A DNA stretch of 64,000 nt from a virus (IMGVR_UViG_3300032334_000315:90690-154689); one strand, 5' to 3'. Positions 1,105 to 48,979 are shown, counted from the stretch's first letter. Made by a program: numbers and translations. The notes: generated by a model from the letters alone, not told the origin.

Positions 1105-2067
1105 ATGATTCGTTTGATCGTAATGCTCTTTATTGGCTTCATCTCGCTTGCGGCTGCGGCGGCTGAGCTAAAAATAATCACTCCATCCAATGACGATAGC
1201 TATAATATCAACGCCAGGATTCTATCCAGGCATCTCGGTAAATACTTACCAGACAATCCTACTATAACTATCCAATCCATGCCAGGCGCTGCGAGCTTAG
1301 TTGCAGCCAATTACATATACAATATTGCGCCGAGAGATGGTAGCGTTATCGGCATTGTCTATAAAGAGATTCCGTTTGTCGGGCTATTAGGCGGTGACGG
1401 AGTCCAGTTTGATCCTAATCATTTCAACTGGATTGGGTCGGTAGCAGACGGCCGCAAGGATGCTGTTATTCTATGGGCCAATGAACCGAAGTTTCGGTCA
1501 GACTTCGTTGTAGGTGCTGAGGGTGCCACATCAGGCAACATGGCTTTGTTTGTCAACAAAATGCTTGGCACCAATTTCAAGATTGTCGGTGGTTATCCAA
1601 CGACCGGTGCTAACCGTCTCGCGCTTGAGCGCAAGGAAGTGGATGCGGTTATCTATAGTTTGATTGGTATCAAAACGCAAAAGCCCAACTGGTTACAGTC
1701 AGGCAGCGGCATCTATCCAACGCTTCAGTTTGGCAACGGTACGGCCCGTCTACCAGAATATAAAGAAGTTCCAGCACTGGCTGAATATGTAACAGACGAC
1801 AAAGACAGAAAGCTCCTTCATGCTTTTGAATCCCAGTTCATAATGTTGCGCCCATTCGTAGCACCGCCTGGCGTGCCAAAAGCTCGCATAGATGAACTAC
1901 GCAATGCGTTCTCAAAAGCAATGGTGGATGCTGAGTATGTTGAAGATGCGCGCCGTGCAAACATAGATATTAATGCTATCAGCGGTGCTGATATGGAAAC
2001 CATGATAAAGACTCCAGTAAATATCGAAACGCTCGATAGTCTCAAACAGATTTATAAGGTAAAGTGA
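1105..2067 (+). CDS. Tripartite tricarboxylate transporter substrate-binding protein (TctC/Bug family)
   Basis: Signal peptide; ARILSRHLGKYLPDNPTITIQSMPGAASLVAANYIYNIAPRDGSVIG; RPFVAPPGVPKARIDELRNAF. Confidence 0.85.
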   Translation: MIRLIVMLFIGFISLAAAAAELKIITPSNDDSYNINARILSRHLGKYLPDNPTITIQSMPGAASLVAANYIYNIAPRDGSVIGIVYKEIPFVGLLGGDGVQFDPNHFNWIGSVADGRKDAVILWANEPKFRSDFVVGAEGATSGNMALFVNKMLGTNFKIVGGYPTTGANRLALERKEVDAVIYSLIGIKTQKPNWLQSGSGIYPTLQFGNGTARLPEYKEVPALAEYVTDDKDRKLLHAFESQFIMLRPFVAPPGVPKARIDELRNAFSKAMVDAEYVEDARRANIDINAISGADMETMIKTPVNIETLDSLKQIYKVK

Positions 2068-2068
2068 A

Positions 2069-2749
2069 ATGTTCGAACATGCTCTATTTCCTACACTGTT
2101 AACCGAATTTGAATATCCAGAAAAAGATGCGTTCAAAAATGCTTTTTACCAGGGCATCTTCAAGTATATGTCACCCGAAGGATACTCAAGCGAGTTCACT
2201 GGCCATGTGAATATCCACCATGAACCATCGTTTGAGCCATTCTTCAAGTTTGCTTCAGATTGCGTCAAGCAATATATCGCAAGACTTCACTTGGATCCAA
2301 ACCTGTTTGAGTACAATGTGGTCAAAACATGGATGAACATTACTAAAAATCGTATGACACCTATGCACAATCATGCGGACGCGCACATGTCATTTACCTA
2401 CTACATTAACATTCCAAAAGAGTTCTCAAAGCCTATTCGTTTCTTCAACTACAATATGAGACATGAACCGTTCCCAGGTTGTATCAAGTTTAATGATCCA
2501 TCAAAATGGGACGACTTCAATGCATACACATGGCAGATTGAACCACAAGAAGGCAGACTGTTTGTTTTCCCAGCAAATTTGACGCATGACACCGTAGGCC
2601 ATGAAGAAGAGAAAGAACCAGGATGCTTCACTCCAGACGATCTGGATCAGATGCGCGTCTGTCTTGCGTGTGATATTCTTCTAACATATAAAAATAAAGC
2701 AGCGAAACCATTGGGTGTCCAACCTGTGAGTAACTGGAGAATTTTCTGA
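2069..2749 (+). CDS. Putative 2OG-Fe(II) oxygenase (TIGR02466-like)
   Basis: WMN...HNH...SFTYYI and EPQEGRLFVFPANLTHDT...R, a double-stranded beta-helix motif set. Confidence 0.75.
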   Translation: MFEHALFPTLLTEFEYPEKDAFKNAFYQGIFKYMSPEGYSSEFTGHVNIHHEPSFEPFFKFASDCVKQYIARLHLDPNLFEYNVVKTWMNITKNRMTPMHNHADAHMSFTYYINIPKEFSKPIRFFNYNMRHEPFPGCIKFNDPSKWDDFNAYTWQIEPQEGRLFVFPANLTHDTVGHEEEKEPGCFTPDDLDQMRVCLACDILLTYKNKAAKPLGVQPVSNWRIF

Positions 2750-3369
2750 TGGCAAAGTATACAACAATTTATAATGATCCATACCGTCGCGCTAAGATTA
2801 CTTTGCCGTTTGCATTTTGGGATGGAGCATTCTCAGACGAAGAACTAAAAGCGGTTATTGAGTATTGCGATTCATTCGGTGTCGAACAGAGTACGCTTAC
2901 TGGCACCACAGACATTGAAGAAATTAAAAAGTACCGCGAATCAAAGATTAAGTTTCATGAGCGTAATCAGGACAACGGCTGGATCTTTGACAAACTAAAC
3001 TTCATCATTCAGTCTATCAACGAGATGTATTATGGCTTTGATTTGAATGGATATAATGTGTTCCAGTATACCACATATGACGCTGAAGACGAAGGCCGAT
3101 ATGATTGGCACATGGATATGGCAATGGGCCATGAGCAACCTGGTGTGGCTGAAATTCGCAAGCTATCACTCACTCTCCTATTGGACGATGAGTTTGAGGG
3201 TGGTGAGTTCCAGATCAATGGTAGCAATGCACATGAACCTATCATTGCAGAATTGAAAAAAGGACGGGCTATTTTGTTCCCGTCCTTTATGATTCACCGT
3301 GTTACGCCAGTCACAAAAGGCAAGAGGCGATCAATCGTTGTCTGGGTAGTAGGACCAAAGTTCCAGTAA
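2749..3369 (+). CDS. 2OG-Fe(II) oxygenase, prolyl-4-hydroxylase/PKHD-like
   Basis: YDWHMD, RKLSLTLLL, EFEGGEF, LFPSFMIHRVTPVTKGKRRSIVVWVVGP. Confidence 0.88.
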   Translation: MAKYTTIYNDPYRRAKITLPFAFWDGAFSDEELKAVIEYCDSFGVEQSTLTGTTDIEEIKKYRESKIKFHERNQDNGWIFDKLNFIIQSINEMYYGFDLNGYNVFQYTTYDAEDEGRYDWHMDMAMGHEQPGVAEIRKLSLTLLLDDEFEGGEFQINGSNAHEPIIAELKKGRAILFPSFMIHRVTPVTKGKRRSIVVWVVGPKFQ

Positions 3370-4281
3370 CTACTTCAACACAATGTCTTTTTCATACTTA
3401 TCGACAATTTTATTTATTTTATCAATTTCTTGTTGAATTTTTTCTCGTTCAAAACATCTGAGTTCATGACCAATCTTCTCAAGTAGTTTTATAAAATCAG
3501 TCGATCCACATATTTTTGGCAAAAAAATATCAAACGTCTTTACAAATTCAACTCTTTCTTTCGGTACAGAAAATCCGACAGTTGATACAAAATTAAAATC
3601 TGGAACACCAACATGTTTTCCATTAGGAATATTTGATGCTTCTAAACTAGATGATAAGATTGGTCTCAAGCCTATGATGTCTTGTGGCGAAAATATTGTA
3701 TAGTCAGCTTCGTTTACCAATATGCTTTTTGTTATTTCATATGGTGATGTGTAATTTAAATCTTTAGATTTAAAGCCAATCGACTTTAATAAAACAACAT
3801 TAAGATACGGTGTTATTGCATTTGTTGTTGTATTCCCAAAGTATACAGTTTTTCCTGAGCTAAAAAGATTTTTTAAATCATTAAACGATTTGATATTTGA
3901 TTTCGGGTTAACGGCAAGATGAAAAGGTGTTCCAGAAAAAGATTGTACTTGAACAACATCACTATTTCGATTATAGGCATTTATATTTGGGCTGGTATAT
4001 CTACCTAAAGTGACACCGGATATACCAGACCAAATCAGAACGTCTTCGCCGGCTCTGGCCGCAGATATAGCTCTAAGGGTAGCATTATCTCCACCAGCTC
4101 CTGGTATTGAAGTAAGCCGAAATTGAACATCATTCTGAATAATATTGAGTTGAGATATTACTTCTGTCCCTACAAGCATTCCAACACTGCCTGGGGTAAA
4201 CATCGAGTAAACATTTACTTCTTTTGCCATAGCACAATTTGACAATAGTAAAAAAAATAATGCAAACATTTTATTAAACAT
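3370..4281 (-). CDS. Divergent TctC/Bug-like periplasmic binding protein
   Basis: Signal peptide, about 300 aa, SIPGAGG motif, PFHLAVNPKSNIKSFNDL segment; paralogous to 7170-8102. Confidence 0.6.
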   Translation of the reverse strand: MFNKMFALFFLLLSNCAMAKEVNVYSMFTPGSVGMLVGTEVISQLNIIQNDVQFRLTSIPGAGGDNATLRAISAARAGEDVLIWSGISGVTLGRYTSPNINAYNRNSDVVQVQSFSGTPFHLAVNPKSNIKSFNDLKNLFSSGKTVYFGNTTTNAITPYLNVVLLKSIGFKSKDLNYTSPYEITKSILVNEADYTIFSPQDIIGLRPILSSSLEASNIPNGKHVGVPDFNFVSTVGFSVPKERVEFVKTFDIFLPKICGSTDFIKLLEKIGHELRCFEREKIQQEIDKINKIVDKYEKDIVLK

Positions 4282-4293
4282 AATAAAATTTCC

Positions 4294-5496
4294 TTAAAAT
4301 TCTGGCTTAAATTGTCCGAGATAATAAAGTCTAGAAAATAGAGTCTTATTCAAGTTTGATTTGTTTGCTATTTTATCATATTTTTTCCATTTGTGCGATT
4401 GATAATCAGCATAAAAATCATGCGCCGTATGAGATATACCAATAGTTTCTACCAACTTTATATCGGGACTTATTTTTGTTGGTTTAGAGCCAACAAAAAT
4501 ATTTGGATCCCAATCCGGATAAATGATTGTATTATACCATCTATCTAAAATAAAACCTGGTGGACATTTTATTTTTGGATCAGACAATGCGTTTTTTACC
4601 ACATTTCGTATGTACATCCACTCATTATATAATTTTTTACTTTTTGCCAATTTATCAATAATTACTTGACACTGTTTTACCGGTATCATTGGAAAATCTG
4701 GTGACCAGTAAAAATCTTCGACTGTATATGGAGCACCTTCTTTTTGAAGAGATACTCCGATATTTGCGAGAGTGATATCGGAAAACAAAAAGAAAATTTT
4801 ACCATCGTCGGTAATGTCAATAATGGGTTTTTCGAGGCCTCTGATAACAGCTACATTTTCTTTTGTTATAGACTGTCTTTCGTGTTTAATTAAAAGTGGT
4901 GACCAATTTTTTCCTACACCTCCTGTAACCCATCTAAGTGACCTAGGTTCATCGTTATGACCAAGATACTCATATTTTTTTCCACCTATTTGCGTGATTA
5001 AATTTTCCGACGAATCAATCAATGTAATTTTAGTGTTTGGACTATATTTTTTAATTTTATTTAACTGTGGTATAACGGCCATCTCAAATTCCATAAACTC
5101 GGTGAGATCCTCGTCATTAAGCAATATGCTACGATCCAATCTATTAATCGCTCTCTGGTGATGAACAATAACGATCTCATCTAAAAAAATATTATTTTTA
5201 AGAAAAGTTTCCAAAACTTGTGTTGAATCGCTACCTCCGGAATATCTTAAAATTAGATATCGGTATTTATCACGCAACTGTTGGGCGCGATCTCTATACA
5301 GGACCGATATGTCAAGGTGTATGGTTTTTTCCCAGTTGATGTTTGAAAAAATATGGTCGTTGTAATAGAATTGAATCTTACCGCCATAATCTTTCTTTAA
5401 TAGCATAAGATCCAATGCATCTTCTCGCATTACAAAAGTTTGGTTATCATAAACATAATAACCCAGGTGTGGGTACTTTATATCAAAAGTTAACAT
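4294..5496 (-). CDS. PP-loop (adenine nucleotide alpha-hydrolase-like) protein of unknown function
   Basis: LYRDRAQQLRDKYRYLILRYSGGSDSTQVL, RGLEKP, EDFYWSPDFPMIPVKQC. Confidence 0.65.
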   Translation of the reverse strand: MLTFDIKYPHLGYYVYDNQTFVMREDALDLMLLKKDYGGKIQFYYNDHIFSNINWEKTIHLDISVLYRDRAQQLRDKYRYLILRYSGGSDSTQVLETFLKNNIFLDEIVIVHHQRAINRLDRSILLNDEDLTEFMEFEMAVIPQLNKIKKYSPNTKITLIDSSENLITQIGGKKYEYLGHNDEPRSLRWVTGGVGKNWSPLLIKHERQSITKENVAVIRGLEKPIIDITDDGKIFFLFSDITLANIGVSLQKEGAPYTVEDFYWSPDFPMIPVKQCQVIIDKLAKSKKLYNEWMYIRNVVKNALSDPKIKCPPGFILDRWYNTIIYPDWDPNIFVGSKPTKISPDIKLVETIGISHTAHDFYADYQSHKWKKYDKIANKSNLNKTLFSRLYYLGQFKPEF

Positions 5497-5931
5497 TTAT
5501 TTGTTTTCATAAAATGGATACAGCTCGCCTGTCTTTCTATTGCGGTATGAATAGTAAAATTGAAAATTTACGTCTCTTAAATTTGACTTTGGATTCAAAT
5601 CTAGCATTTTCTGTTTGATATCAACAATCGCTGTATTGTAAGCTCTTGCTAGAGCGATATTTGAAAAGTAATATTCAATAATCAATGTGGTGTCATCTTC
5701 TGTATATCTGCGCGTCCAACCTTCAAATCCTTCAAATAGTTCTGGAGCCATTTGATCTCTAAGATTCTTCGTTGCTCTAAAATGAGCGGTATTTTTTATA
5801 GTGACGTTATCTCTAACATCAAACAAAACATCGACAGCCTTTGGTGAATTGATAGGAACATAGATGTCCGCCCAATTACCGCCCTCAGATTTGACAGTGA
5901 TTATACTGAATATGATTGGTGCGTCGGTCAT
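5497..5931 (-). CDS. Hypothetical protein
   Basis: ORF track 5497..5967; the ATG at 5931 is preferred because GAGGAG lies just upstream. Confidence 0.6.
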   Translation of the reverse strand: MTDAPIIFSIITVKSEGGNWADIYVPINSPKAVDVLFDVRDNVTIKNTAHFRATKNLRDQMAPELFEGFEGWTRRYTEDDTTLIIEYYFSNIALARAYNTAIVDIKQKMLDLNPKSNLRDVNFQFYYSYRNRKTGELYPFYENK

Positions 5932-5957
5932 AAAATTCTCCTCGTTTGATTCTGGTC

Positions 5958-5976
5958 TATTTAGCATATATAAACA
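5958..5976. promoter_or_regulatory. Back-to-back late-promoter-like boxes (CTAAATA on -, TATAAACA on +)
   Basis: Imperfect TATAAATA variants in the 46-nt gap between divergent genes. Confidence 0.35.
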
Positions 5977-5977
5977 T

Positions 5978-7168
5978 ATGAAATTGCATAATGGATATTA
6001 CACCTATAACGGAAAAATGTTTTTTGCTCGTGAGGACGCATTTGATGCGATGCTATTGAATAATGATCTCAGCGGTCAAATTTTATTCAATTACAATGAT
6101 CCTATCTTCGCGAACATCAATTGGACTAAAGATCCAAAGATAAACATTTCTAGTCTATATCGTATGCGCGCTCAACAAATCCGAGATAAGTATAAGTATG
6201 TCATACTTTCGTTTTCTGGTGGTAGCGATTCAACTCAAGTTCTTCAAACTTTTTTGAATAATGACATATTCATAGACGAAATCCAAGTATCAACTTTGGA
6301 CAAAATGACGCACCGATTTAATAAACAAGAATTGGCTAAAGATCGAGATTTGGGATATATCATGGAATACGAGTATGCTGTAAAACCTATGTTAAAGATC
6401 GTCAAAGAAAAATCACCAGATACCAAAATTACGATTCATGATGCTTCTGATTATCTACACGATCAGTTGTCTGAGAAGAAATTTTTTCCATTAGGAAATG
6501 ATGCACGAACGAGAGTCGGTTCTCCTAGAATGTCACCTGGTGTAGGTCCATCATTCATATGGTGGTATATGTACAATACAATTAATTCAGATAAGTCAAC
6601 AGACAGAGATGGTGTATGTATTGTTAGAGGCTTTGAAAAACCGTCAATTATGATTGACGATGACAACAAGATGTATTTTCATTTCTATGACCATACTATG
6701 ATTTCAACGGCCGCAATCAATAAAGGTGAAGTTGTTGAAAATTATACCACTGAAGATTTTTTTTGGTCTCCAGATATGCCTTTTATTCCGGTCAAACAGT
6801 GTCATATGATTCTGAATAAGTTCAGAAGTGACAAAAAATTTCTAAACAAATATAAAGATGGATTGAAAGCTATCGACGAATTTGCTAAATTAAATTACAA
6901 ACCTGTGTATTCGCCAGCAATTCATATCGAACGAATGTTGTGTGAGATTATATATCCAAATTGGAATCCTAATACGTTTGTGGCACCTAAGCCAACAAAC
7001 ATAAGTCCAGAGTTCAAGATATATGAGCTGGCTGTTGGAAAACACTTCGGTAATGATTTCAAAAAAGAAATCCAAAACTATAAAGAATCCAAATATGACG
7101 CAATATTAGACAAAAGACAATTTTATAGAATGATTCCATCGAAAAAATATTATGTAGGAGACATATAG
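5978..7168 (+). CDS. PP-loop protein, paralogue of 4294-5496
   Basis: LYRMRAQQIRDKYKYVILSFSGGSDSTQVL, RGFEKP, EDFFWSPDMPFIPVKQC; start moved to MKLHNGYY to match the paralogue. Confidence 0.65.
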   Translation: MKLHNGYYTYNGKMFFAREDAFDAMLLNNDLSGQILFNYNDPIFANINWTKDPKINISSLYRMRAQQIRDKYKYVILSFSGGSDSTQVLQTFLNNDIFIDEIQVSTLDKMTHRFNKQELAKDRDLGYIMEYEYAVKPMLKIVKEKSPDTKITIHDASDYLHDQLSEKKFFPLGNDARTRVGSPRMSPGVGPSFIWWYMYNTINSDKSTDRDGVCIVRGFEKPSIMIDDDNKMYFHFYDHTMISTAAINKGEVVENYTTEDFFWSPDMPFIPVKQCHMILNKFRSDKKFLNKYKDGLKAIDEFAKLNYKPVYSPAIHIERMLCEIIYPNWNPNTFVAPKPTNISPEFKIYELAVGKHFGNDFKKEIQNYKESKYDAILDKRQFYRMIPSKKYYVGDI

Positions 7169-7169
7169 A

Positions 7170-8102
7170 ATGTGGATGCGAATTTTATCTTTCTTGCTCG
7201 GCACGTCATTTATGATAACCAGTGCGTTTGCTTTGGAAGAGCGAGTCAATATTTACACCAGATTTGCAGCTGGTGACAACACTATCATTATGGTTAACAT
7301 GATGATTAAGCAGTTGAATAAGAAATATGAAGGTGTTTACGATTTTAGGGTCAACATTATTCCTGGATCAGGTGGAGAATCTGCCGACCAGAGAGCTATA
7401 TTGGATGCCAATGCAGGAATAAACACACTTGTCGTAGGCAGCATTTCAAATTTTGCTATCAATCCAATTGTCTACGATTCAAAAATCAATCGCGATATCG
7501 AATTTATTCCAGTTGAGTTGGCCCATAGATTACCAAACGCAATCATGGTAAATCCAGACTTAAATATCAATACGGTCGACGATCTGGTAAAGCATATTAG
7601 AAACAAGAATAAAGCTTACAGCGGAAACACTCTGCAAGCAACTTCTCCGATTCTGTTAGACTCAATATTCAGAACTCATTATGGATTGAATAATGTTGAG
7701 AGTGTAAAATATAAAGCACCACCTGAAGTTGCGAAGAGCGTTCTTATTAATGAAGTCGATTATTCAATTTTAAATCCCATCGACACCACAGGGTTAAAGC
7801 TTTTAGCAATTTCGTTTCCTCAAAGAGATGCTTATTTTCCAAATATTCCTACGGGAATTGAATCTGGCATGCCAGATTTTAATTATGCTTCAAGCATGAT
7901 GTTCTATGTGCCAAAAGCAAGTCTGAAATTTGTCGCTACTATCAGACAGGAACTCCATCAAGCATGCCTTGATAGCTATGGTATTGATATGGTAAAAACT
8001 CTTAAAATTACACCAATATGCAATAACGATGAGACATTTCTTTGGAAAGAAATTACTAGAGAAAGATTGCTAGCCCTAAAACATAAAGACTCACTCAAAT
8101 AA
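7170..8102 (+). CDS. Divergent TctC/Bug-like periplasmic binding protein
   Basis: Signal peptide, NIIPGSGG, AIMVNPDLNINTVDDLV, FPNIPTGIESGMPDF. Confidence 0.65.
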   Translation: MWMRILSFLLGTSFMITSAFALEERVNIYTRFAAGDNTIIMVNMMIKQLNKKYEGVYDFRVNIIPGSGGESADQRAILDANAGINTLVVGSISNFAINPIVYDSKINRDIEFIPVELAHRLPNAIMVNPDLNINTVDDLVKHIRNKNKAYSGNTLQATSPILLDSIFRTHYGLNNVESVKYKAPPEVAKSVLINEVDYSILNPIDTTGLKLLAISFPQRDAYFPNIPTGIESGMPDFNYASSMMFYVPKASLKFVATIRQELHQACLDSYGIDMVKTLKITPICNNDETFLWKEITRERLLALKHKDSLK

Positions 8103-8891
8103 TGCTAAAAACTGTTCTTTGGTACCAAAAGTGTGATTAGGATCAGGCGTATGTACTCTATGCTGCCTGATACGGACAAATACTAGATCATATCCTGATC
8201 CATAATCATACGAGAATTTTGGTCTCCATGGAATGTTATAGATCCTTGATTTGAAATCTTGAACCGTTTCATTACCCATTTCTTTTACCATAGCACAACA
8301 CAGTTCTGGCGTGTATGTGAAAAAGTAATGGGTATTATCATTGTGAATTAAAACGTCATTGTAGAAATCCCACTCATTAGCACCAACATACATTTGTCCA
8401 TCATTGTCGTCAATGATGTGTTCGCTCATAATCATAATCCCGCCATGATCTTCTGCGTATCTACCGACTATAAGGCCTGGTACAGAATTGTGACCATATC
8501 CACTTAATTTTTTAAATATGTCATCAACAAAGATCGTCAATAGTTCAGACGGTGTTTTGTCGATAACTATAGGATCTATTCCGTACTCCTTGCAAGTACG
8601 AAAAGCATAAGCCGATTCATATTTGTTTATTGGCGTATTGACAATAACGGGAATTACGTTATGATCGCGTTCGACCATACGTCTAAACACGAACTCTGAA
8701 TCCATACCGCCACTAAAACCAATAAACAACTTTTCTGATTTATCAGCAATTAAATCGGCAGTGTAATCTGTAGCTGCATCAAAAGACATTATATTGTATG
8801 GCTTTGTATTCAGATGCACAGAAAAATTTGTCGAATTGTTTATTAATCTTTTGGATAGATTACTTCGAAGCCAATTGTTTTCCGTTGCCAT
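8091..8891 (-). CDS. Short PP-loop protein of unknown function
   Basis: LFIGFSGGMDSEFV motif. Confidence 0.55.
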   Translation of the reverse strand: MATENNWLRSNLSKRLINNSTNFSVHLNTKPYNIMSFDAATDYTADLIADKSEKLFIGFSGGMDSEFVFRRMVERDHNVIPVIVNTPINKYESAYAFRTCKEYGIDPIVIDKTPSELLTIFVDDIFKKLSGYGHNSVPGLIVGRYAEDHGGIMIMSEHIIDDNDGQMYVGANEWDFYNDVLIHNDNTHYFFTYTPELCCAMVKEMGNETVQDFKSRIYNIPWRPKFSYDYGSGYDLVFVRIRQHRVHTPDPNHTFGTKEQFLALFE

Positions 8892-9327
8892 CTAAGCCTT
8901 TCCATGTACCAAATATCAAGTCCCAAATGGGAATGAACACGCCATAATTTTTGGTGGCATAATCATGGTGAATGAGATGCCACTTGCCACTGGTTAGGAA
9001 TGGATAGAGATTGATGCGCTTGTTATGTTCGACCGCCTCTTGGATAAAGCCAGCCCAAATGTAGTACGCAACTAAAAGCCACCAATGACCAGTGATTGCA
9101 GATATTATAATCGTTGGAATCACTTCTGTCAACCACTGATCTATGGTGCTATTCCAGGTATCGAAAAAAAGAAATGCGTTTTTCCAGTTTAGACCTTGGA
9201 TTGTTTGGTCTGTTACCTGCGCGTGATGATCCATGTGAAATTTACGGACAATCGGAATCACATGGGCCGCACGATGCGCCCAATAGACGACAAAAGTCCA
9301 TAAAAGAAACACAAGGAAGTAGCTCAT
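8860..9327 (-). CDS. Fatty acid hydroxylase / sterol desaturase family membrane protein
   Basis: His boxes HRAAH, HMDHH, HLIHH and NYGVFIPIWDLIFGT; the ATG at 9327 overlaps the upstream stop (ATGA). Confidence 0.82.
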   Translation of the reverse strand: MSYFLVFLLWTFVVYWAHRAAHVIPIVRKFHMDHHAQVTDQTIQGLNWKNAFLFFDTWNSTIDQWLTEVIPTIIISAITGHWWLLVAYYIWAGFIQEAVEHNKRINLYPFLTSGKWHLIHHDYATKNYGVFIPIWDLIFGTWKGLDGNGKQLASK

Positions 9328-10379
9328 TTTAGATAGTATGGTTGCGAAAAGAAGCAATGCTTTCTATTTATCGCTGTATGCTTTGATATAGTTCTCATGC
9401 CTTCCAGCGTCATTCTATACATAGCACTATCGGTTTTTGATAGCATGAACATATCTCTGGCGCTGAGCGAGCTATACATGGATTTGGTCGATTCAAATTG
9501 AAGTGGTGTTCTGAGGTTATATATGATGCTATTCATCCGTTTCATGCGGTCCATATATGCGACTTCTCTTTGCCAACCATGAGGTAATGTTTTACCCTGC
9601 ATTATCATATCAACAAAAAGCGTTTCAAACCTCATGACAACGTGGGCCTGCTTTACCATGATCTTTATTACGATGTCATCTGTACCGTTGTAGAAATTGA
9701 TGCGCTTGAAGTTTTCATCTTCATAGTTTGCACCATAGTCATTGACGGATAGATCATTAAATCGGACGCAGTTATCGAGGGCTTCATATCCTGGCTTGTC
9801 GGAACCCATAATATAGCATGTCTTTTTGTTATTGTCTTTGCCAATAAACTTCTTCAGGTCATACCAGAATAGATTATGAACGCTTTTAAATGCACCGATA
9901 TGATCGGTCCATTCATTACCATATTTTTTAATGAGTGTGAAATTGTTTGGATCGGTAAAGTGTTCGGTATAGTCAGATACCGTAATCTTTGTGTTCGGTA
10001 GATGCATACCGTTTAGAGTCGGAAACGCATTGAGATATATGTCGCCGTTATGATTTTCGTCGGTGCCTTTTTGTTTATCTTGAGAGAATGCGCCGACTAA
10101 AAGTATCTCGTCTATCAAAATATTATTGTAGTAGAATGTTTCCAATATGTTGGTAGAGTCGTAGCCTCCAGAATAGCATAGGATCACGTGGTCATATTGA
10201 TCGCGAATCTGCTGTGCGCGTTCGCGATACAATACATCTAGAGTTTCAGTTGGCTCTGTTTTCCAATCGACTTTTTTAAAAACGTCATCGTAAAAATAAA
10301 AAGAACAATGTCTGTTTGAAGCAACAGCCGCAGCGTGTGTTGGATAGACATTTCTATCCTCATCATAATAAAACATCAT
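9324..10379 (-). CDS. PP-loop protein, third long paralogue
   Basis: LYRERAQQIRDQYDHVILCYSGGYDSTNIL, MGSDKP, VKQAH. Confidence 0.65.
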   Translation of the reverse strand: MMFYYDEDRNVYPTHAAAVASNRHCSFYFYDDVFKKVDWKTEPTETLDVLYRERAQQIRDQYDHVILCYSGGYDSTNILETFYYNNILIDEILLVGAFSQDKQKGTDENHNGDIYLNAFPTLNGMHLPNTKITVSDYTEHFTDPNNFTLIKKYGNEWTDHIGAFKSVHNLFWYDLKKFIGKDNNKKTCYIMGSDKPGYEALDNCVRFNDLSVNDYGANYEDENFKRINFYNGTDDIVIKIMVKQAHVVMRFETLFVDMIMQGKTLPHGWQREVAYMDRMKRMNSIIYNLRTPLQFESTKSMYSSLSARDMFMLSKTDSAMYRMTLEGMRTISKHTAINRKHCFFSQPYYLK

Positions 10380-10388
10380 TGAATGTGT

Positions 10389-10820
10389 TTACCCTGCTGT
10401 TTTGTTGGTAAAATTATCCTTTGATAGCGAATCAATCAAACTCTTAATATCATCATCTGTTAGAACATCGGCCTTCTTAGCAAGAAGTTCATCAGTATTT
10501 TTAATAACGGTTTTACCAAGCATTGCTTTTACATTTGTTAAAGATGTATCTATATCTGGATTATTTACAGCTTCCATTTTACGAAGCCATGCCATTGGTG
10601 CGTTCATAAGGATAAAATCTTCAAGCACTTGCCCTTCTAGTGGTGGAATTGGCATGTCTAAAGATACATCCGTGCGGCAGCGCATAGGAGTACTGTCTGG
10701 GCGACGATTAACATCGTTTGCCACTTTTAGCATTTCTTCGGTTATTTTATCAGTTGTATATCTGACAACAAACAAATGGTCATCAGGCCATACTTCAATG
10801 ATTCTGTAATGAATGTTCAT
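10389..10820 (-). CDS. Hypothetical protein, possibly a fibre/adhesin assembly factor
   Basis: Translationally coupled to the Gly-rich adhesin gene; function inferred from position only. Confidence 0.5.
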   Translation of the reverse strand: MNIHYRIIEVWPDDHLFVVRYTTDKITEEMLKVANDVNRRPDSTPMRCRTDVSLDMPIPPLEGQVLEDFILMNAPMAWLRKMEAVNNPDIDTSLTNVKAMLGKTVIKNTDELLAKKADVLTDDDIKSLIDSLSKDNFTNKTAG

Positions 10821-12181
10821 CCTACTGGTCCCGTTCTAGTTCCTGTGTTAATCCAACTTGTCACATATGCATTACCAGTTACGGCATTTCCTTGCGAACC
10901 TGTAGCACCAGTCGCACCTGTGGCTCCTGTGTCTCCAACTGCGCCTGTGGCTCCTGTGTTTCCTGGTGTTCCTGTTCCTCCAACATTTCCTACAGCACCA
11001 GCATTACCTGCAGGCCCATAACCACCTGCACCGCCGCCACCTTGAACGACACCCCAACCGCCTGGTGAACCATAAGGAGGATTATAACTTGCAGCACCAC
11101 CAGCTCCTATATTACCGCCGGGTCCGCCTGATGCGTAACCAGACCAACCAATAGTACCACCACCGCCACCACCATTAGCACCACCACCACCGCCAGCGTT
11201 TCCTGAAGTCACGCCAGGATAATAGCCTCCGCCACCTCCTCCACCATAACTACCACCACCGCCGCCGCCTCCACCGGCACCGTCCGGATCGGCCTTAGCG
11301 TTATAAGCATAACCACCTCCGCCTCCTCCACCACCGCCTCCGGTAGCTGCTCCACCACCATTGCCCGGTGAACCTCCAGCGCCCCCAGGTGCACCAGCGC
11401 CACCGGGCCCACCTGGGCCTCCTGGTCCGCCAGGGCCACCGACTCCGCCGGGCCCTCCTGTTCCACCGGCACCGCCGATAAATGATGTTGTGTTTTCAAT
11501 AACCGTTATTAGACCAGTAACGGAGTCAACCTGAAATGCGATACCGCCGGTACCACCAGCGTTACCAGTCACACCAGTGCCGCCTGTATTTCCTTTGCCG
11601 CCTGCGTTGCCTTGCCCACCACCATTACCGGGTGAGCCGTTATTTCCCGGTGCACCGTTATTACCTGGATTAGCAGGTGAACCGCCGCCGCCTCCATTAC
11701 CAGATACTTGCCAATAAGCAGGCGAGTTATAACCAGCGGGCACACCCTTAGATGCAGGATAATAACCTGTAGCAGGAAAATAAATTGGTGATCCTGCACC
11801 GCCACCACCACCGACACCATTTGAACCTGGATTACCTGGTGTCCCAGTATTACCTGGTGTGCCTGGGTTTCCCGCAAGGCCTGTAGTGCCGGAGTTTCCT
11901 GTAGTGCCTGGATTACCTGTAGCACCTTGATTACCAGAAGTGCCTGTGCCGCCTGTGATGGTAGAAGTATTCTTCACATACACAAACGAACCAGCTTTCC
12001 AACCAGTTCCAGTCTTAAATGCTGGTGTGTTAGGTGATGATGATCCGATGTTATTATTGATAAAGCATAGCAAGTTCAACGGATATGTAGGTGCAGCCGA
12101 TGTGTTATATAGGTCTACGTTATTCGTAGAGCTATCAATACTAACAACCTTAGTTGGTCTTGCCATTAAAAATGTGAACAT
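10817..12181 (-). CDS. Gly-rich receptor-binding adhesin (T-even gp38-like) with G-X-Y repeat blocks
   Basis: Poly-Gly motifs separated by aromatic variable loops; C-terminus GNAVTGNAYVTSWINTGTRTGPV resembles gp38 ends; several G-X-Y runs. Confidence 0.65.
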   Translation of the reverse strand: MFTFLMARPTKVVSIDSSTNNVDLYNTSAAPTYPLNLLCFINNNIGSSSPNTPAFKTGTGWKAGSFVYVKNTSTITGGTGTSGNQGATGNPGTTGNSGTTGLAGNPGTPGNTGTPGNPGSNGVGGGGGAGSPIYFPATGYYPASKGVPAGYNSPAYWQVSGNGGGGGSPANPGNNGAPGNNGSPGNGGGQGNAGGKGNTGGTGVTGNAGGTGGIAFQVDSVTGLITVIENTTSFIGGAGGTGGPGGVGGPGGPGGPGGPGGAGAPGGAGGSPGNGGGAATGGGGGGGGGGYAYNAKADPDGAGGGGGGGGSYGGGGGGGYYPGVTSGNAGGGGGANGGGGGGTIGWSGYASGGPGGNIGAGGAASYNPPYGSPGGWGVVQGGGGAGGYGPAGNAGAVGNVGGTGTPGNTGATGAVGDTGATGATGATGSQGNAVTGNAYVTSWINTGTRTGPVG

Positions 12182-12184
12182 GTG

Positions 12185-13213
12185 TTATCTTACATCCGGC
12201 ATGAATGAACCATAGAGATATGTACCATCAGAAACGAACGAAAATACGTCATGCGCGCCCGCAGCAGTAGATAGAGGAGGTGCAACACCAGCAGTCCACT
12301 TAAAGATTGCATTCCATGTTGCTGTACGACCACCGGTACCGTCTTGATAAATGTGGAGAATATATGTACCGACTTTTAGATTTGATGGTGCACCGATTGT
12401 GCGATTACCACCAATCGTCACAGTAGCAATCTGACCTAATGCTGTGTTCCACGCTACTGTGGCCGCATCTGAAAGTGTTTGCTGTAGAATGTTTGCGGTT
12501 GCGGTGCTTACTGTTCCATTGAATGTGGAGTTACCAGAAACTGTGAGATTCTGAGTGACATTTAGTGATCTATTTACAGTAACAAGACCAGAAGATGCAA
12601 TGGTAAATCTATCAGCCAGACCGAGCTGAACACCCCAACCCGAAGTGTTAGCTGTAATCTTTGCGACTTCAACACCATTGATGGTATAGAAGTCATATGT
12701 GTTATAACCCGTCGGCGCTTTTCTTTGGAATGCTGCCGTTGCACCTGTCGATTCGGCCAGAACCGCTTGACTGGCTGCTCTAGAAACCGTAAGAACACCA
12801 CCAATATTAGTATTACCACCAACAAAAAGATTTGTGGAAACAGTCGCACGACCAACAACATTTGCTGTGCCTGTAATAAAAGTTGTTTTGTTTGCTCCAC
12901 CTAAAAACGTATTACCAGATACGTTTAGATTCGTGCCGACTGTAAGGCGACCAGACGCGGTTGTTAGGCCTGTAAATGTGGAGTTGCCTGTAACGCCTAG
13001 ATTGGTACCAACTACGGCTCTACCTGATGCAGTGAATAGACCCGTGACAGTTGCAGTACCTTTTGCAGTGAACGCTACGTTAGATGTCAGAGTGTTAGCA
13101 TAAAGAGAAGAGTTGTTGATAGCAAACTGGCTCATACGATCCAACACAGTGTTGGTTCGCGTTCTCCACGTATTAAATGTATCCGTAAGGGCGACGTTAG
13201 CTATCTTAGCCAT
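12185..13213 (-). CDS. Tail fibre / virion structural protein
   Basis: N-terminal VALTDTFNTWRTRTN anchor, beta-repeat shaft, and a C-terminal QDGTGGRTATW...KWTAGVAPPLST...DVFSF fibre-tip domain. Confidence 0.7.
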   Translation of the reverse strand: MAKIANVALTDTFNTWRTRTNTVLDRMSQFAINNSSLYANTLTSNVAFTAKGTATVTGLFTASGRAVVGTNLGVTGNSTFTGLTTASGRLTVGTNLNVSGNTFLGGANKTTFITGTANVVGRATVSTNLFVGGNTNIGGVLTVSRAASQAVLAESTGATAAFQRKAPTGYNTYDFYTINGVEVAKITANTSGWGVQLGLADRFTIASSGLVTVNRSLNVTQNLTVSGNSTFNGTVSTATANILQQTLSDAATVAWNTALGQIATVTIGGNRTIGAPSNLKVGTYILHIYQDGTGGRTATWNAIFKWTAGVAPPLSTAAGAHDVFSFVSDGTYLYGSFMPDVR

Positions 13214-13216
13214 CTA

Positions 13217-13432
13217 TTATCCTATCTTGTCTAAAAGTCGCTGCATCAGCGATTTTATTTGATCTATATCAGACTTCATATTATTTATATCTGAAAGAGC
13301 AGCGTCCAATTCCTGTTGCTTATTTCTCTTACGTCTATAAGCTTCAAGGCCATCAATATCGGTACTCAGAACAGCCTGGTTAGTAACATCTCTGACTAAC
13401 CCAGGCGCGTCTTTTACTTTTGCTACTTGCAT
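13217..13432 (-). CDS. Small coiled-coil protein of the type found after VrlC-like genes
   Basis: VKDAPGLVRD...AVL...YRRKR...INNMKSDIDQIKSLM; synteny. Confidence 0.65.
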   Translation of the reverse strand: MQVAKVKDAPGLVRDVTNQAVLSTDIDGLEAYRRKRNKQQELDAALSDINNMKSDIDQIKSLMQRLLDKIG

Positions 13433-13435
13433 TTC

Positions 13436-16400
13436 TTACCTCTGTAGTGCAATTGCTCTAAGTTCATGGACTGTTGGTGGATTCGTGCTGGTATCAGCAG
13501 TCAATACGACTTTAACAGCAAAGAACTTGAATCGCACATAACGAGCTTTTGTTGAGTTGCGATATTCAACATAACCAGTTGTGTTATTTGCACCATACTG
13601 ATTGATAGCACGACCAGATGTGTCGGTAATAGCAGTTGTTGGGAAGTTTGGCATATTGTATGTTAGCTCAATATAATCTTCCTTATTGATGCTGCTTGAA
13701 TATCTAGTTGTTCCAGTGTAACCCTGAGATGTGTCACGACTCATAGGAATCCAACGTGCATCTTCAAACAAATCATTGTCGTCCGCATTTAGGATCTTAG
13801 CATATACCTTAACATCGGATCCCGGTGGAATGTATGCTGCTAGATACACACGAAGGTCTTCTGCATCTTGACCATCTGCGAGTGTCACGCGACGAGTGAC
13901 ATAACGAGTTTTAGAATTGCCACCGGACTTTACCCAATCTTCTGATGATCCAATTTCTGTGTTAGAACTAATCAGATTGCGAGTTGCGACCAATGAAATT
14001 CTGCGAAGATCAATAGCTGGTGAAGCAACAGCATTTCGGCCATTAAGAATGTACTGTATTTCAGCGGACTTATTTCTAGCCATTGTTGAGCTTGAAGCTG
14101 AAGTGTTTGCTTCAATGCTGCGACTCAAAATATAATGAGGAGATGAGAGTTCAGCCACATCATTAATTATAATTTCTCCGAATGATGAATCGCGTGTGCT
14201 TGTGCTTGAAGCAAACTTAGCATATGCTCCTACAGATGTATTTGATGGTTGAATCAAATTGGTAATCAAGCTGACATTGTCCATTGATACGCTATCAATT
14301 GTTACGATACAAGCTGTGTACGCATTTGTTTGACCTGTGATGTACATACCGGGGAAGAACATACGGTTTGCACTGTTTGCTGGTCCACTGTTTGCATATG
14401 CTGTGTTGGCAATATGTAGTTTGGTGTTTGCGTAATTCACAACATCATAATAAACTGTTCTACCAACTGGATATGTTGCAGACTTTAGCGCAGTACATGT
14501 ACCAATTTGTACGCCCGTTGTTGGATTAGTGTTACGAATCGTAATTGTTTCACCACCCTTGAATGCTGCACCAATTGAATTACCTTTAATGCGAATTGCA
14601 CTAGTGCTCCAAGATGTGATTGTGCCGGTTGCTCCTGATGTTTGGCCCTGTGCATAGCAAAGGATTGAGCCAGCCGTATTAACTGATTTCGTATTAGAGA
14701 ACGTACCTACTAGAAGCTGTTCGCCATAAACAAGTTCACCAATCTTATTGAATGCACCTGTTGTGTTAGCGATAGTGAAGTAGTCGCGATTCTCATTCTT
14801 TAGAACCAAAGTGCCTGTAGAGCTAGAAGCAAATTTTGCGTAGTACGCAGTAAACTTCAAATCTTCATTTTCTACCGGCACCCATGTGCGCTGATTTGCT
14901 GAAGTGAATAGGAATCCTGCAGCTGGCTGCTCAGAAACACGAGACTTTGTTATAATATCTTTTTCACCAAGAACGGCTGTAAATGCATTGTAGTTTGGAT
15001 TTGTACCTGCTGGAATGAGAACAATCGCATATTCTTTGCCGTCACCCACATAAACTGGTGATGGGAAATATACCGGTGTTACCGCAGATCCGTCATCGCT
15101 GATATTGATATCGGCCGACGGAACAACAACACGAGAGAATGGCACAACGCGAGTTGTAATGTACGCTGTAGCTGGATCCACTTCACGCAATTCAATAATA
15201 ATTGGAAGTGTTGCATCTTTAGTTGCAAAATATAAATCCAACTTAGTTAGATACATTCCACTTGTTTGAATTCGGTTTGACAATAGTGCTGTAATAAGCA
15301 TGGTCTGTGCGATAGGATCATCTGATCCTCCACAACCACCATCGCCTCCACCACCACCGTCTCCACCGCCTCCACCGTCGCCGGGAGCTGGGCCAGCATC
15401 ACCTGCATCACCAGGAATAACACCAACGAGACGTTGCCCACCAACTTCATTTGTCGTTGTTTGATTGACGTTTTTAATTTCAGTCAACAATTGTTGTGAA
15501 ATTGTTGCTCTTTTTGTTGAAAGAGTTAAGTCTGAAATGCCTGCCATCAAACCTTCAGATGAATAATCCGTTTCGGCTGATGTTGTAAACTGACCAAAAA
15601 CAAGACTATTTGTTGAATTATCAACAAAACGTAGACGCTTAGTTCCTGTACGGAAACGAAGTGATGAATCGCTAGGTAGACGGAATATACCATATGCAGA
15701 CCCATCAGCGCCAGTATTTAAAGATGCTCCTTCAACAGCGGTTGGTTTTGTCGGAACACCGTTTACCTTAAGACCAGAGTTATATTCATCGGCTGTTAGT
15801 GGTGTGATGTATCTATTAACATCTACTCCGTCAAAAAAACCATAGATACGGCTACTAGACTTCATTCCAACAATTTTGAAGATAATCATGCGCGAGCGCA
15901 TGAATGGTTGAATATTTACGTCTTTAACAAAATTACCTAAAGTCTGTTTATTATTTGTTACTGTAGCTATAGTTTGACTACCAGTTCTTCCTTCAATTGT
16001 AGGTGTTGTAAAGATATTTTGCGTGATGAAATTCTGCATCACGTTTGTGGAACCGTCAGCTTGAGGTACAAGAGTTTGATCCGTATCTCTATTATTTGAC
16101 GAGCTTAAAACTGGTGTACCAACAAATGTTTGTTGCCATCCATTCCATGATGTTGGCCATGCATTAGCTAACCAAATCCAGTTATCTGTGTTCAAATCAA
16201 TATTGATATCAACATCTGGTCGCTGCGTTGTGTCCATCCAATAATCACTATCAGGTGTGATTGTGATTGTGCCTCTCCACAAGAACGCTGTACCAACACA
16301 ATTACGAGTTGTCGTTGCATAAGGTTGTGTTACCAAAACATCGTGACTATATGGTAAAGTTACAAGATCGCCAGGAACAGCATTAGATACCGAAACGATA

Positions 16401-19400
16401 GAAACTGACGCGCCACTTAATGTCGAGTCTGATATTGATACAGAGCCACCAGCAGTAAAATTACCAGTAGCATTTTCAACATATAGTTTAATACCATAGC
16501 CACGGCCACCAGTAATTTGTTGGTATGCCATATTTCTAATTGTTGCTGTAACAGAACCTGAAGTTATTGTTGCGCCTGCTAGATTACCAGAAACGCCGTT
16601 TTCTGGGCGAGTTGATACATATTCACTCGGAAGCAAATCTATGATAACTGTCTGGTCTTTAGATATACCGGCTGGTGTTACGTTGGTACGTACAACACCA
16701 GATGAGTTTGCAGTATAAGTCAGAGCAACATTGTCCAGCGTCATCAATGGACGCATTTTGCCCTTTTCGGAGTCAACAGTCCACTTCGTATCATTATCAA
16801 ATGGATTGGCTACTCCATATCCTTTAAACGAATCTACAAGAATGCCATTTTTAAATCTGTCTAATCCACTTGCATCTGGAATCAATAGATCCGTGGTATT
16901 CTTTTCCAATAGATTCAAGGATGTATAATACTCTAGACGATCTATACGATCACGAATGTTACCAATATCGCGCATCGTATAACGCTCATTGCGGATCTTA
17001 CGAACATTGTTAGACAAGTCCGCACGATTTACACGGCGCGCAATTTCAACTGGAAGAGAAGGATACGGAGCAAGAGATATTGTGGCTAGTGCCATCATAT
17101 CTTCCGGCACTGCTGGTGCAGCAGGTCTGCTATCAGGAACACCTCTTACAATGTTAAAAATACCGGCCTTAGTGACAGCAACAGTGTCTATACGCTTTAG
17201 ATAATAATCAGCATCTGTTGTGAAATCTTGACCTGTCGGTGGAAATTTTAAGCAACCAGTTGGATTATAAAATGTCGTAGAGGTAAGCGGATTAATTGAA
17301 ATATTTGTCAATGCCGTCACGCTATTTGCGGTATCGGCAATACGAGGACGAACATCAACACAGTCGCGAAGATCAAATGCTATACCTGATGTCGGAGAAA
17401 CATACACAGGAATGTCATATGTGTACATTTTTGATGTGTCAGTTCCAGCAGTTGAGTCATTTACTGGATAAGAATCGACTGAAAAATATCCTACACCAGA
17501 CGAATGGCTGTGTGTAAAATGGTCAAATGTTACAAGCAATCTATCTCCAGAAGAGATAGACAAACTGCTTGATGATTTCTTCTTCAAGCGAGCATGATCG
17601 TAATAGTTGTCTCCCATACCGGTGTCAAGAATGAAATCGTTTGTTACATCTGTACCTTCAGTGGTAGTACTAAAATTTGAACTTGACTTCTTACGAACGG
17701 ATACAAGTTTGAATCCATCAGACATACCAAGAGGCCATGGACCTGTGGTATTGGCTGTATATGAAGTGCCGCCTCCGGCGCCGATACGAATTTGAACCAG
17801 ACGGTTACGAGCAATTACCTTAGCCGCTTCTTGTCCATCAATTTGATTGACATGTGCTACAATATTAAGTGGAACACCTGTCGTGTTAAATGTCTCGTTT
17901 AGATTGATTGTTGCTCCGCGCGCAGGTGAAGAAGAAATCTGAACTGTACGAGCGCCATTACCACCATATCCACCTAGATCAACAACTTGACCTGAGATAA
18001 ATTTCTTGTAGTACTTACCACTTGTTACTGTAGCTGCTGCTGTACCCAGTACATTCAATGATGTATCGCTGTTTACTGCACTAACAATAAGATCACCAGC
18101 AAGACCGATATGGAGAACATCGCCCACATTGATCTTAGTTGTGAAACCAGAACCGCCAGCACCGGTTACAGTATTAGCACCAGAAGTTATGCTTACGGAA
18201 CCAACCGCAACAGTGTTAGCTGCGCTTGTCACTACAGCATGAAAATCTGTACGGCGTGCTGACTGACTTAGATATGATCCGCCACCATCAAATGTCTGAT
18301 TGTCGTCACCTGTGTTTAGTGTAGCAACACCAGATGTATCGGTTGTCTGAGTAAATGTTTTGTAGAATTCAAAATCATTATTGACTACACCTGTTGCATC
18401 ACGAAGCTTTTTAGTAGCGATTGTTGGCAATCTAAAAATTGCACGATCTGTAGCAGAGTCTACAGTATTGGCTGATAGATAACGAACATCGGCTTTACCT
18501 GGTGTATTTGCCGAATATGCAACACCCTGAACTTGGGTAAAAGATTTACCAGCAGCCATTTTAATGTCGGTTAGATACATTTTATAAAGAGCATTTGGAG
18601 CTCCTGGTGTACCACTAAGATATTCAAGACCTCTCACACGCGCGGTACCGATCGTAGCACCTTTAGCGCCTCCTGATGGCCATGTTGTTGAGTATTCAAG
18701 TCTAGTTACAGAATTCGACTGGTTGTCTTTTAGATTTACTAATGACAATCCATTGAGATCCCATTTGCCGGCTACGCAGTCAACAATTAAATAATTACCG
18801 TAATCAATAAGTGCTTTTGCAGACTGAACAGAACTATAGTCAGTGGCTTTATTGAAAGAGATGCGTGTGGATACAATATTTTCATTATCATATCCTTTGA
18901 CATACGCTTTGCCAGGTTCAACAATAGCAACAAGTTTTGTAGAAAGGCCACCTTCAGAAGATGTGTATACTCCTTGATTATTACCAACTTTCAAATGCTC
19001 TTTAATCGTTACGCCCATACCAGAAACAACATAATCGCCAGACTCATCGACTGTACGCTGAGCAAGATAATCGCGGATCTTTGAATACTGAGTGCGATTT
19101 GAAATTGACTGAACGATACCATTTTTTACCTGCATCAACTCAATGAAAGTATTTGACACGGTTGCATCAATATCCACTTTCTTCAAATCAACAACAAGCT
19201 TTAAGCGGTTGGCGCCAGGCGCAGCGTAGTTATAAGATCCAGATGCTGGATCCAATAGCGTTGAGTCATCTACTTCTGAGATAATTGATTCAACGATGTC
19301 AAAACCAACGCGAACGCTAGGTGTCTTATCATATTTACTTAAAACCAAAGTCTGAGCAGGAACACGAATGAAGTGGTCTTTAGCATAAACAATACCAGCA

Positions 19401-48329: not shown

Positions 48330-48405
48330 TGGCTCGGGGTGATGGGCTCGAACCACCAACACACGGATTCAAAGTCCGTAGTTCTACCAATTGAACTAAC
48401 CCCGA
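48330..48405 (-). tRNA. tRNA-Gln (anticodon UUG) with encoded CCA
   Basis: Full 76-nt cloverleaf: acceptor TCGGGGT/ACCCCGA, anticodon arm ACGGA-CTTTGAA-TCCGT, T-loop TTCGAGC. Confidence 0.93.
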
Positions 48406-48637: not shown

Positions 48638-48664
48638 AATTATCACCTTTCTAATAAAGTTAGT

Positions 48665-48977: not shown

Positions 48978-48979
48978 AT

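Follow-up and report, generated by a model that had tools for sequence, protein, structure and literature searches.

Cyanophage PstS is an exported binding protein that a phage supplies, belonging to an ATP-binding cassette (ABC) system and having phosphate as its ligand. Orphan Bug genes, which encode exported binders of the TctC type, are often found beside genes for enzymes acting on the ligand of the encoded protein. In pelagimyophages and cyanomyophages, a hypervariable host recognition cluster lies between VrlC and gp14, and the auxiliary genes reported in the same work include a TctA-family transporter and asnB (PMC7029224). In a term search, PP-loop, TctC, DctP and TRAP were all absent from that text and from its 10 supplementary files, and no description of an enzyme–binder system was found in the literature on phage TctC, DctP or PP-loop modules. 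Here, we analysed a stretch of 64,000 nucleotides (the window), bases 90690-154689 of the 154.7-kb IMG/VR virus record IMGVR_UViG_3300032334_000315 (estimated to be 93% complete), in which two gene pairs, each consisting of a PP-loop enzyme gene and a gene for a TctC/Bug-type exported binding protein, face away from each other. These pairs belong to a real and recurrent module of phage genes that combines known folds and has hitherto not been described.

The locus comprises two anciently diverged copies of a mobile cassette within a larger conserved enzyme island. Each cassette appears to couple, at the level of translation, an exported TctC/Bug-type binder of carboxylates to a PP-loop ATP-pyrophosphatase that is virus-specific as far as sampled and is predicted to be cytoplasmic and to resemble the AsnB synthetase domain. 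Tentatively, and with a confidence somewhat below even, we propose that the module as a whole captures and tailors a small organic acid.

Two enzyme–binder cassettes and their relatives

The four open reading frames (ORFs) that an earlier note on this DNA had proposed are all present where it placed them (Table 1). The paralogy it had claimed is evident for the PP-loop genes (P0001 vs P0003, 43% identity over 392 amino acids, E 1e-103) as well as for the binders (P0002 vs P0004, 34% identity over 276 amino acids, E 1e-37), and the motifs quoted there (RAQQ.RDKY, SGGSDSTQVL, RG.EKP, EDF.WSPD.P.IPVKQC and PDFN) are seen in the paralogue alignments. Enzyme and binder genes are separated by 12 nt in the minus-strand pair and by 1 nt in the plus-strand pair, and by -1 to +10 nt at many other loci. 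The layout is real and not an assembly artefact, since the same gene order occurs in a near-identical IMG/VR contig from another data set (L013) and in one contig of a 2017 freshwater metagenome of another study, which is colinear over 2800-8600 with 95 mismatches and no joints.

The PP-loop motif reads SGGSDS in P0001 and P0003, and SGGYDS and SGGMDS in the neighbouring proteins P0273 and P0274. Across 40 diverse homologues, S86, G87, G88, D90 and S91 are invariant, as are 18 further positions beyond the SGGxDS loop. The same alignment contains no invariant or nearly invariant cysteine, which argues against the sulfur-transfer, QueC and 3'-phosphoadenosine-5'-phosphosulfate (PAPS) reductase branches and leaves carboxylate or carbonyl adenylation in the amide-forming branch. 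Neither P0001 nor P0003 matched any Pfam family at E ≤ 1 or any PHROG family, and the asparagine synthetase profile PF00733 was likewise not matched; fused relatives, described below, reached 12.8-13.1 bits against it, below the cut-off of 21. Solved structures searched with a profile of the family gave no significant match, and by sequence the enzyme is not a member of PF00733.

The fold of the enzyme was assessed on an AlphaFold2 (AF2) model of P0001 with a predicted local distance difference test (pLDDT) score of 89. An exhaustive structural aligner ranked AsnB (1ct9) first among solved structures (Z 11.2, 291 residues aligned, root-mean-square deviation (rmsd) 5.4 Å, identity 8%), followed by human ASNS, beta-lactam synthetase, TsnB9 and carbapenam synthetase. 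These AsnB-type matches (Z 11.2, 10.8, 9.9, 9.2 and 8.5) extend over 279-300 aligned residues at rmsd 5.4-6.7 Å, whereas GMP synthase, TilS and PAPS reductase were matched over a core of 150-190 residues alone. Foldseek gave weak matches to PP-loop enzymes with template modelling (TM) scores of 0.2-0.3, and all top fold matches of the enzyme were PP-loop enzymes. The N-terminal nucleophile (Ntn) glutaminase domain is absent from the 400-amino-acid protein, which has about 60 residues ahead of the helix entering the PP-loop. On this model, the enzyme is probably AsnB-like, i.e., carboxylate-adenylating and amide-forming.

The enzyme family is large and, as the earlier note had supposed, uncharacterised: it lacks a Pfam model, sequence comparison reveals no relative of solved structure, and homologues in cultured phages were not found. 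It comprises 1,785 representative clusters (50% identity) at E ≤ 0.001 and is carried by at least 519 IMG/VR contigs; a word-indexed search gave 147 matches, every one an unnamed metagenomic protein, and neighbours in the ESM Atlas were 85-100% viral. The DNA of the region and the proteins P0001, P0004 and P0076 found no match among 50,697 phage records, a set from which near-identical genomes may be missing. As far as sampled, the family appears to be confined to viruses. Four long-family copies occur in this phage, namely P0001, P0003, the paralogue PP350 (P0273) and one at 8756-9898 of the genome. The last, a protein of 380 amino acids, lies outside the window and is followed by a gene for a radical S-adenosylmethionine (SAM)/SPASM protein of 484 amino acids (G000:C1:7166-9898), whose family is also encoded close to the enzyme in other phages.

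The binder P0004 matches the Pfam TctC family (PF03401) well above the cut-off of 27 bits; P0002 alone reached 12 bits, below this cut-off, and is placed by its clear paralogy to P0004. A joint binder profile, which included three cellular TctC sequences, recovered 11 solved binders of tripartite tricarboxylate transporters (TTT) at E 6e-51 to 2e-30. The P0004 model shows the two-lobe type II binding-protein fold of Bug proteins and aligns with BugE, AdpC and TphC/terephthalate binders (2dvz, 5oei, 8hka) at TM 0.78-0.83; the solved structures close to it are binders with oxoadipate, malate or terephthalate. Both binders have two invariant cysteines (C266 and C284 in P0004), and cellular relatives of the binders are just 24-27% identical.

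Both binders begin with K/R, a hydrophobic stretch and then AxA, in the manner of a signal peptide (in P0002, MFNKMFALFFLLLSNCAMA followed by KE). According to a hydropathy heuristic applied to N-termini, such hydrophobic starts occur in 31/37, 33/33 and 16/16 members of three TctC-like clusters (80/86 overall) vs 5/134 enzymes. The enzyme's partner is thus predicted to be exported, in agreement with the earlier proposal. No TctA (PF01970) was found in the 154.7-kb phage record, so that a host permease would be needed.

To place the pairs in context, ORFs were called in 88 loci plus the window and the resulting 1,291 proteins were clustered, giving 134 enzyme genes. A gene with a binding-protein fold stands immediately beside the enzyme in 77 cases and within two genes in 88, and the remaining 46 have no binder within two genes. 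Clustering divided these binders into four groups: 38 genes of the TctC clade to which those of the window belong, 37 genes of another TctC-like clade whose products have signal peptides (Pfam TctC E 6e-6), the TctC3 clade, and a DctP clade of the tripartite ATP-independent periplasmic (TRAP) transporter type (33 genes, Pfam DctP E 3e-46). The adjacency of PP-loop and TctC genes, the recurrence of which the earlier note had suggested as a check, does recur, with 36 adjacent same-strand pairs in the TctC clade, 27 with TctC directly downstream. Approached from the binder side, all three places found via P0004 homologues (3/3) have the enzyme directly upstream; a narrower TctC-like seed for a reciprocal survey yielded known relatives only.

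Distant enzyme clades pair with other binding-protein families, so that three different binder families are represented beside the enzyme, in different genome contexts. Enzyme clades follow the class of their partner: on the enzyme tree, this class changes 32 times vs a shuffle mean of 62 (minimum 52), a statistic that is merely descriptive because related sequences share labels. The DctP-like proteins beside the enzyme keep the carboxylate-binding TRAP arginine motif, the role of which has been described (PMC4646407), and none of 29 has a signal peptide. Viral DctP-like genes lacking a signal peptide were found on at least 438 IMG/VR contigs (L095-L174; also L007 9237-10202 and L082 7315-8277), and their products would be cytoplasmic, which is unusual for the DctP/TRAP family. 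Complex prediction for a distant enzyme and its adjacent DctP-like protein without signal peptide gave scores of 0.01 and 0.00 and weighs neither way.

The enzyme and binder trees, to which the earlier note had looked for signs of co-evolution, proved congruent, with well-supported clades common to both among 30 adjacent pairs. Patristic distances of enzymes and binders are correlated (Mantel r 0.71; 0/2000 permutations as high), and the true enzyme–binder pairing was the best of 16 possible within-genome swaps. Because of this congruence, we view the pairs as old two-gene cassettes that have been shuffled as units. Each pair of the window is nearer to a pair of another phage than to its counterpart: P0001/P0002 share 63%/48% identity with the L005p10 pair and P0003/P0004 share 48%/50% with the L014 pair (the enzyme having its nearest relative in L014-L016), vs 43%/34% between the two pairs of the window. 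In L005 two pairs stand in tandem; L014-L016 possess the plus-strand pair and the small gene only.

At the DNA level, a single 98-nt stretch of 70% complementarity survives between the two arms, from which we conclude that the paralogy is old. The proposed duplication of the pair as a unit therefore stands in so far as enzyme and binder co-diverge, but not as a local mirror duplication, as each pair has its closer kin in another phage. What looks like a mirror image results from two old cassette lineages having come to stand side by side, not from a local inverted duplication. Similarly, the functional coupling deduced from it finds support in the pair behaving as a unit, although co-inheritance of neighbours alone does not prove coupling.

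The enzyme island and its phage

Apart from the two pairs, the region holds further enzyme genes, and the two-gene module originally envisaged turned out too small: in some phages a short PP-loop gene is fused to the long enzyme, and PP350, a hydroxylase and 2-oxoglutarate (2OG) oxygenases are syntenic with the pairs. Certain proteins of 677-689 amino acids have the long enzyme as their C-terminal half, and with their N-terminal half the short protein P0274 shares 40% identity (E 1e-69; loci including L181 1727-3793 and L182 2365-4398). Gene order in the fusion phages is PP350, hydroxylase, fused short–long enzyme and TctC, and in many loci the short PP-loop gene stands directly upstream of enzyme–binder cassettes. 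Since the two are fused in some phages, the short and long PP-loop proteins are suggested to work together. Of all the indications of coupling, this fusion is the strongest, joining one PP-loop protein to the other, with the binder always following. These relatives had also been considered as enzyme–TctC fusions, which was rejected as the extra half is unlike P0004 in the two proteins tested; it gives weak PP-loop Pfam matches in 3/4 and matches P0274.

Table 1. Genes of the two cassettes and of the surrounding island (window coordinates).
Feature	Coordinates	Strand	Basis
Third exported TctC-like gene	1105-2067	+	Weak Pfam TctC match (E 0.006); hydrophobic N-terminus in 16/16 c11 proteins
2OG-Fe(II) oxygenase gene, first after third TctC-like gene	2069-2749	+	Pfam E 1e-11
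2OG-Fe(II) oxygenase gene, second after third TctC-like gene	2749-3369	+	Pfam E 2e-14
TctC/Bug-type exported binding protein P0002, 303 aa, predicted partner of P0001	3370..4281	-	Paralogy to P0004, signal-peptide-like N-terminus, joint profile
Long PP-loop enzyme P0001, 400 aa, best fold match the AsnB synthetase domain	4294..5496	-	SGGSDS motif, AF2 model, fold matches
Small accessory protein P0005, 156 aa (possible start 5931)	5497..5967	-	Homologous to ~140-aa family; first gene of minus arm
Long PP-loop enzyme P0003 from residue 39, 396 aa, paralogue of P0001	5978..7168	+	Motif FSGGSDST; 43% identity to P0001
TctC/Bug-type exported binding protein P0004, 310 aa	7170..8102	+	Pfam TctC E 2e-11, 44.4 bits; model pLDDT 93
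Short PP-loop protein P0274, 266 aa, predicted partner of long enzyme	8091..8891	-	Motif FSGGMDSE; fusion in relatives
Fatty-acid-hydroxylase-family membrane oxygenase, 165 aa	8860..9357	-	Pfam FA_hydroxylase E 4e-16; position after PP350 conserved in 15 loci
PP350 (P0273), third long-family PP-loop paralogue, 351 aa	9324..10379	-	Motif YSGGYDST; 44% identical to P0001 over residues 42-167
Conserved 143-aa protein preceding PP350, cluster c9	10389..10820	-	Upstream of PP350, same strand, 14 loci
aa, amino acids.

Between the two arms lies the small gene for P0005, which is real and conserved, leaves no gap to the minus-strand enzyme and matches a recurring family of about 140 amino acids (c18/c97) found beside enzyme–binder cassettes (phmmer 4e-42 to 1e-6; hhalign 97%); it had no match in Pfam or PHROG. 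As this gene is the first of the minus-strand arm, the mirror is not symmetric. For the plus-strand enzyme, the start at 5978 is supported over 5864, because homology to the paralogue begins at 5978; with the 5864 start, the ORF would extend into the small gene. Of the back-to-back late-promoter-like boxes described for the divergent region, approximate matches are present, but the exact TATAAATA does not occur there, and scans of this region for sigma-70 promoters and terminators gave no excess.

PP350 forms a separate clade and is flanked by the 143-amino-acid gene and the fatty-acid hydroxylase, not by a binder. The 143-amino-acid protein has no Pfam match; it was considered as a member of the P0005 family and rejected, no relation being found. 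Together with the tail-fibre-like genes, the short PP-loop gene, the hydroxylase, PP350 and the 143-amino-acid gene make up one run on the minus strand (8091-13432), in which successive genes overlap or are at most 9 nt apart. The exact TATAAATA is found at 13282-13289, and these genes are probably co-transcribed late with the fibre genes. On the other flank, the trio of TctC-like gene and two 2OG oxygenases (1105..3369) is syntenic in at least 16 loci. In some phages (loci L084, L087 and L090, 4370-5980), a tryptophan-halogenase-family flavoenzyme of 537 amino acids is encoded between two PP-loop genes.

The island is surrounded by T4-like genes, including a gp13-type neck protein (302-1045), baseplate wedge proteins, tail-fibre-like proteins and an ORF of 2173 amino acids, and its position in the phage is between the tail-fibre genes and gp13. 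In one relative, gp13, gp14, gp15, terminase and sheath genes follow directly past the island. The 2173-amino-acid ORF (13436-19957, minus) stands beside the fibre genes and is possibly a VrlC-like giant structural protein of the kind bounding the pelagimyophage host recognition cluster. Genes for CsgF, CsgG and curlin repeats, which are a hallmark of pelagimyophages, adjoin the island in one relative (locus L181 7333-8793).

No psbA was found in the phage genome, and the phage is therefore probably not a cyanophage. The window contains a permuted transfer-messenger RNA (tmRNA) of the alphaproteobacterial type (48662-49017, minus; Rfam alpha_tmRNA, 107 bits; tag ANDNAPISYALAA), adjoined by a tRNA-Gln at 48333-48405 (minus). 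The nearest cultured phages by the baseplate protein, with the hosts Ochrobactrum and Pelagibacter, are merely 32-39% identical, and near-identical DNA is present in freshwater metagenomes from several studies, with no RNA data among the sequencing runs listed for it. Based on the tmRNA type, these cultured phages and the metagenome matches, the host is probably a freshwater alphaproteobacterium.

Possible roles of the module

The observations establish families, folds, motifs and export signals as well as recurrent adjacency, co-divergence and gene fusion, whereas the chemistry, the ligand and the use of a host TctAB are inferred. In the account that we tentatively favour, a small organic acid in the periplasm of the host would be taken up by the exported binder and delivered to a TctAB permease that the host supplies. 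Once inside the cell, the captured carboxylate would be adenylated with ATP by the PP-loop enzyme, and attack of an amine or ammonia on the adenylate would give an amide. The short PP-loop protein and PP350 may carry out related ligations, and the oxygenases may hydroxylate the compound. We favour such capture and tailoring because it follows the common pattern of Bug genes and fits the separate compartments of enzyme and binder. The latter point also bears on the earlier suggestion of a synthase making what its receptor binds, a direction that found no support: with a cytoplasmic enzyme and an exported binder, the classical Bug import pattern fits at least equally well.

Several observations weigh against import and tailoring. 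The island lies in the late structural region, with PP350, the hydroxylase and the short PP-loop gene in one run with fibre genes, a placement better suited to modifying the virion or the envelope than to taking up nutrients. Moreover, the combination of several ligase-like enzymes with oxygenases has the look of biosynthesis more than of assimilation. The DctP-type partners in other phages have no signal peptide and hence cannot serve uptake. Of 80 viral DctP-like loci, 49 are without a PP-loop gene within 5 kb and 31 have the enzyme, and seen from the binder the link is frequent, not obligate. Many loci stem from related phages sharing synteny by descent, and the adjacency counts are inflated accordingly.

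The location of the island could also point to decoration, in which the targets of the ligases and oxygenases would be the tail-fibre or adhesin protein encoded next to them or an envelope component with a carboxylate (a cell-wall precursor, an aminolipid or a lipopolysaccharide sugar acid), with the exported binders acting on envelope-derived acids. In some bacteria, cell-wall precursors are amidated by AsnB-like enzymes, and the fatty-acid hydroxylase family acts on lipids. Consistently, the island is always found in the host-recognition cluster between fibre genes and gp13, and the genes from c9 to the short PP-loop gene follow the fibre genes closely on one strand; the pelagimyophage region at this position has been described as holding envelope-related genes (PMC7029224). 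However, a periplasmic solute binder is hard to place in this scheme, since virions assemble in the cytoplasm, and enzyme–binder pairs also occur far from fibre genes, beside PhoH or radical SAM genes. We consider this explanation, including the role it gives to the binders, unlikely.

Alternatively, the ligases and oxygenases could build an acid- or peptide-like metabolite that is released and then bound by the exported TctC-like protein, comparable to a siderophore or opine receptor. An island that combines four PP-loop genes with genes for two 2OG oxygenases and a membrane hydroxylase does resemble a biosynthetic cluster. One relative has, in addition, an Amidoligase_2 gene directly after TctC, others have genes for radical SAM/SPASM proteins and a tryptophan halogenase in the vicinity, and each enzyme lineage retains its own binder lineage. 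Yet no exporter, scaffold synthase or precursor peptide was noticed in the window or the loci, there is no indication of the direction of flow, and a secreted product would be of small gain to a lytic phage within one short infection cycle. Production and re-binding of a phage metabolite is, in our estimation, improbable.

The absence of any direct functional link, i.e., independent auxiliary genes that are neighbours by descent in a hypervariable island, is about equally improbable. It would account for most TctC-linked loci belonging to related T4-like phages with common synteny, for viral DctP-like genes that often lack the enzyme and for the 46/134 enzyme genes without a nearby binder; linked genes would yield congruent trees even if they were not coupled in function. 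On the other hand, the pair survives inversion, duplication, order swap and relocation, unrelated binder families occupy the same position beside distant enzyme clades, and enzyme and binder show tight stop–start coupling. A TilS-like modification of tRNA or other nucleic acids by the PP-loop proteins, independent of the binders, is very improbable: TilS/MesJ, NcsA and ThiI are among the fold matches (Z 7.6-9.1) and the enzymes are mildly basic (isoelectric point ~8.4), but these matches span only the common core of 150-190 residues vs 291 for AsnB, conserved cysteines are lacking and Pfam found no RNA-binding domain.

Looking beyond the single locus, PP-loop amide ligases seen so far only in viruses might, with dedicated binders that are exported in the case of TctC and cytoplasmic in the case of DctP, constitute a phage-specific small-molecule system that makes, or captures and tailors, an acid-derived compound during infection, a generalisation we regard as doubtful. 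In such a system, the phage could be producing a metabolite for which it also encodes the receptor, or the compound could serve to decorate the envelope or the apparatus of host recognition.

Either way, a large enzyme family without a Pfam model, solved structure or cultured representative resides in that region of the genome which serves host recognition in T4-like phages abundant in aquatic habitats, and its consistent pairing with acid binders offers a route to the enzyme substrate via the ligands of the binders. If a small acid is captured and tailored, or made and re-bound, the module would represent a new class of phage auxiliary metabolism; if an adhesin or the envelope is decorated, the module would be of relevance to superinfection exclusion and to the range of hosts. 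In this context, the DctP-like proteins without signal peptide in hundreds of viral contigs are a so far unexplained departure from the normal behaviour of TRAP binding proteins.

Comparison with described systems

As regards lasso peptide and other ribosomally synthesized and post-translationally modified peptide (RiPP) systems, no precursor peptide, leader protease or recognition element was noticed in the ORF lists and neighbourhood maps, which covered ORFs of ≥50 amino acids and were not searched specifically for these elements. The closest structural matches to the enzyme model, i.e., the AsnB synthetase domain, beta-lactam synthetase, carbapenam synthetase and TsnB9, share with it the SGGxDS PP-loop, the Rossmann-like core and the helical C-terminal region, and a like chemistry of carboxylate adenylation followed by amide formation would be expected from the model. 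The phage enzyme differs from them in having no detectable sequence similarity and in a small domain of about 60 residues that replaces the glutaminase.

The orphan Bug/TctC binders, among them BugD, BugE, AdpC/Rpa4515, MatC and TphC, resemble the phage binders in family, fold and export, in the lack of accompanying TctA/TctB and in having enzymes as neighbours. The phage binders, however, are only distantly related to them at the level of identity given above for cellular relatives, and are carried by a lytic-type T4-like phage. At the level of the genome, the pelagimyophage host recognition cluster is comparable in its position between tail-fibre genes and gp13/gp14 and in its mixture of fibre genes with seemingly unrelated enzymes (PMC7029224); the present phage differs in its freshwater origin and in a baseplate protein that is distant from those of cultured phages. 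Like cyanophage PstS, finally, the exported phage binder would make use of a permease in the host membrane, whereas PstS comes without the dedicated cytoplasmic enzyme partner that accompanies the binders described here.

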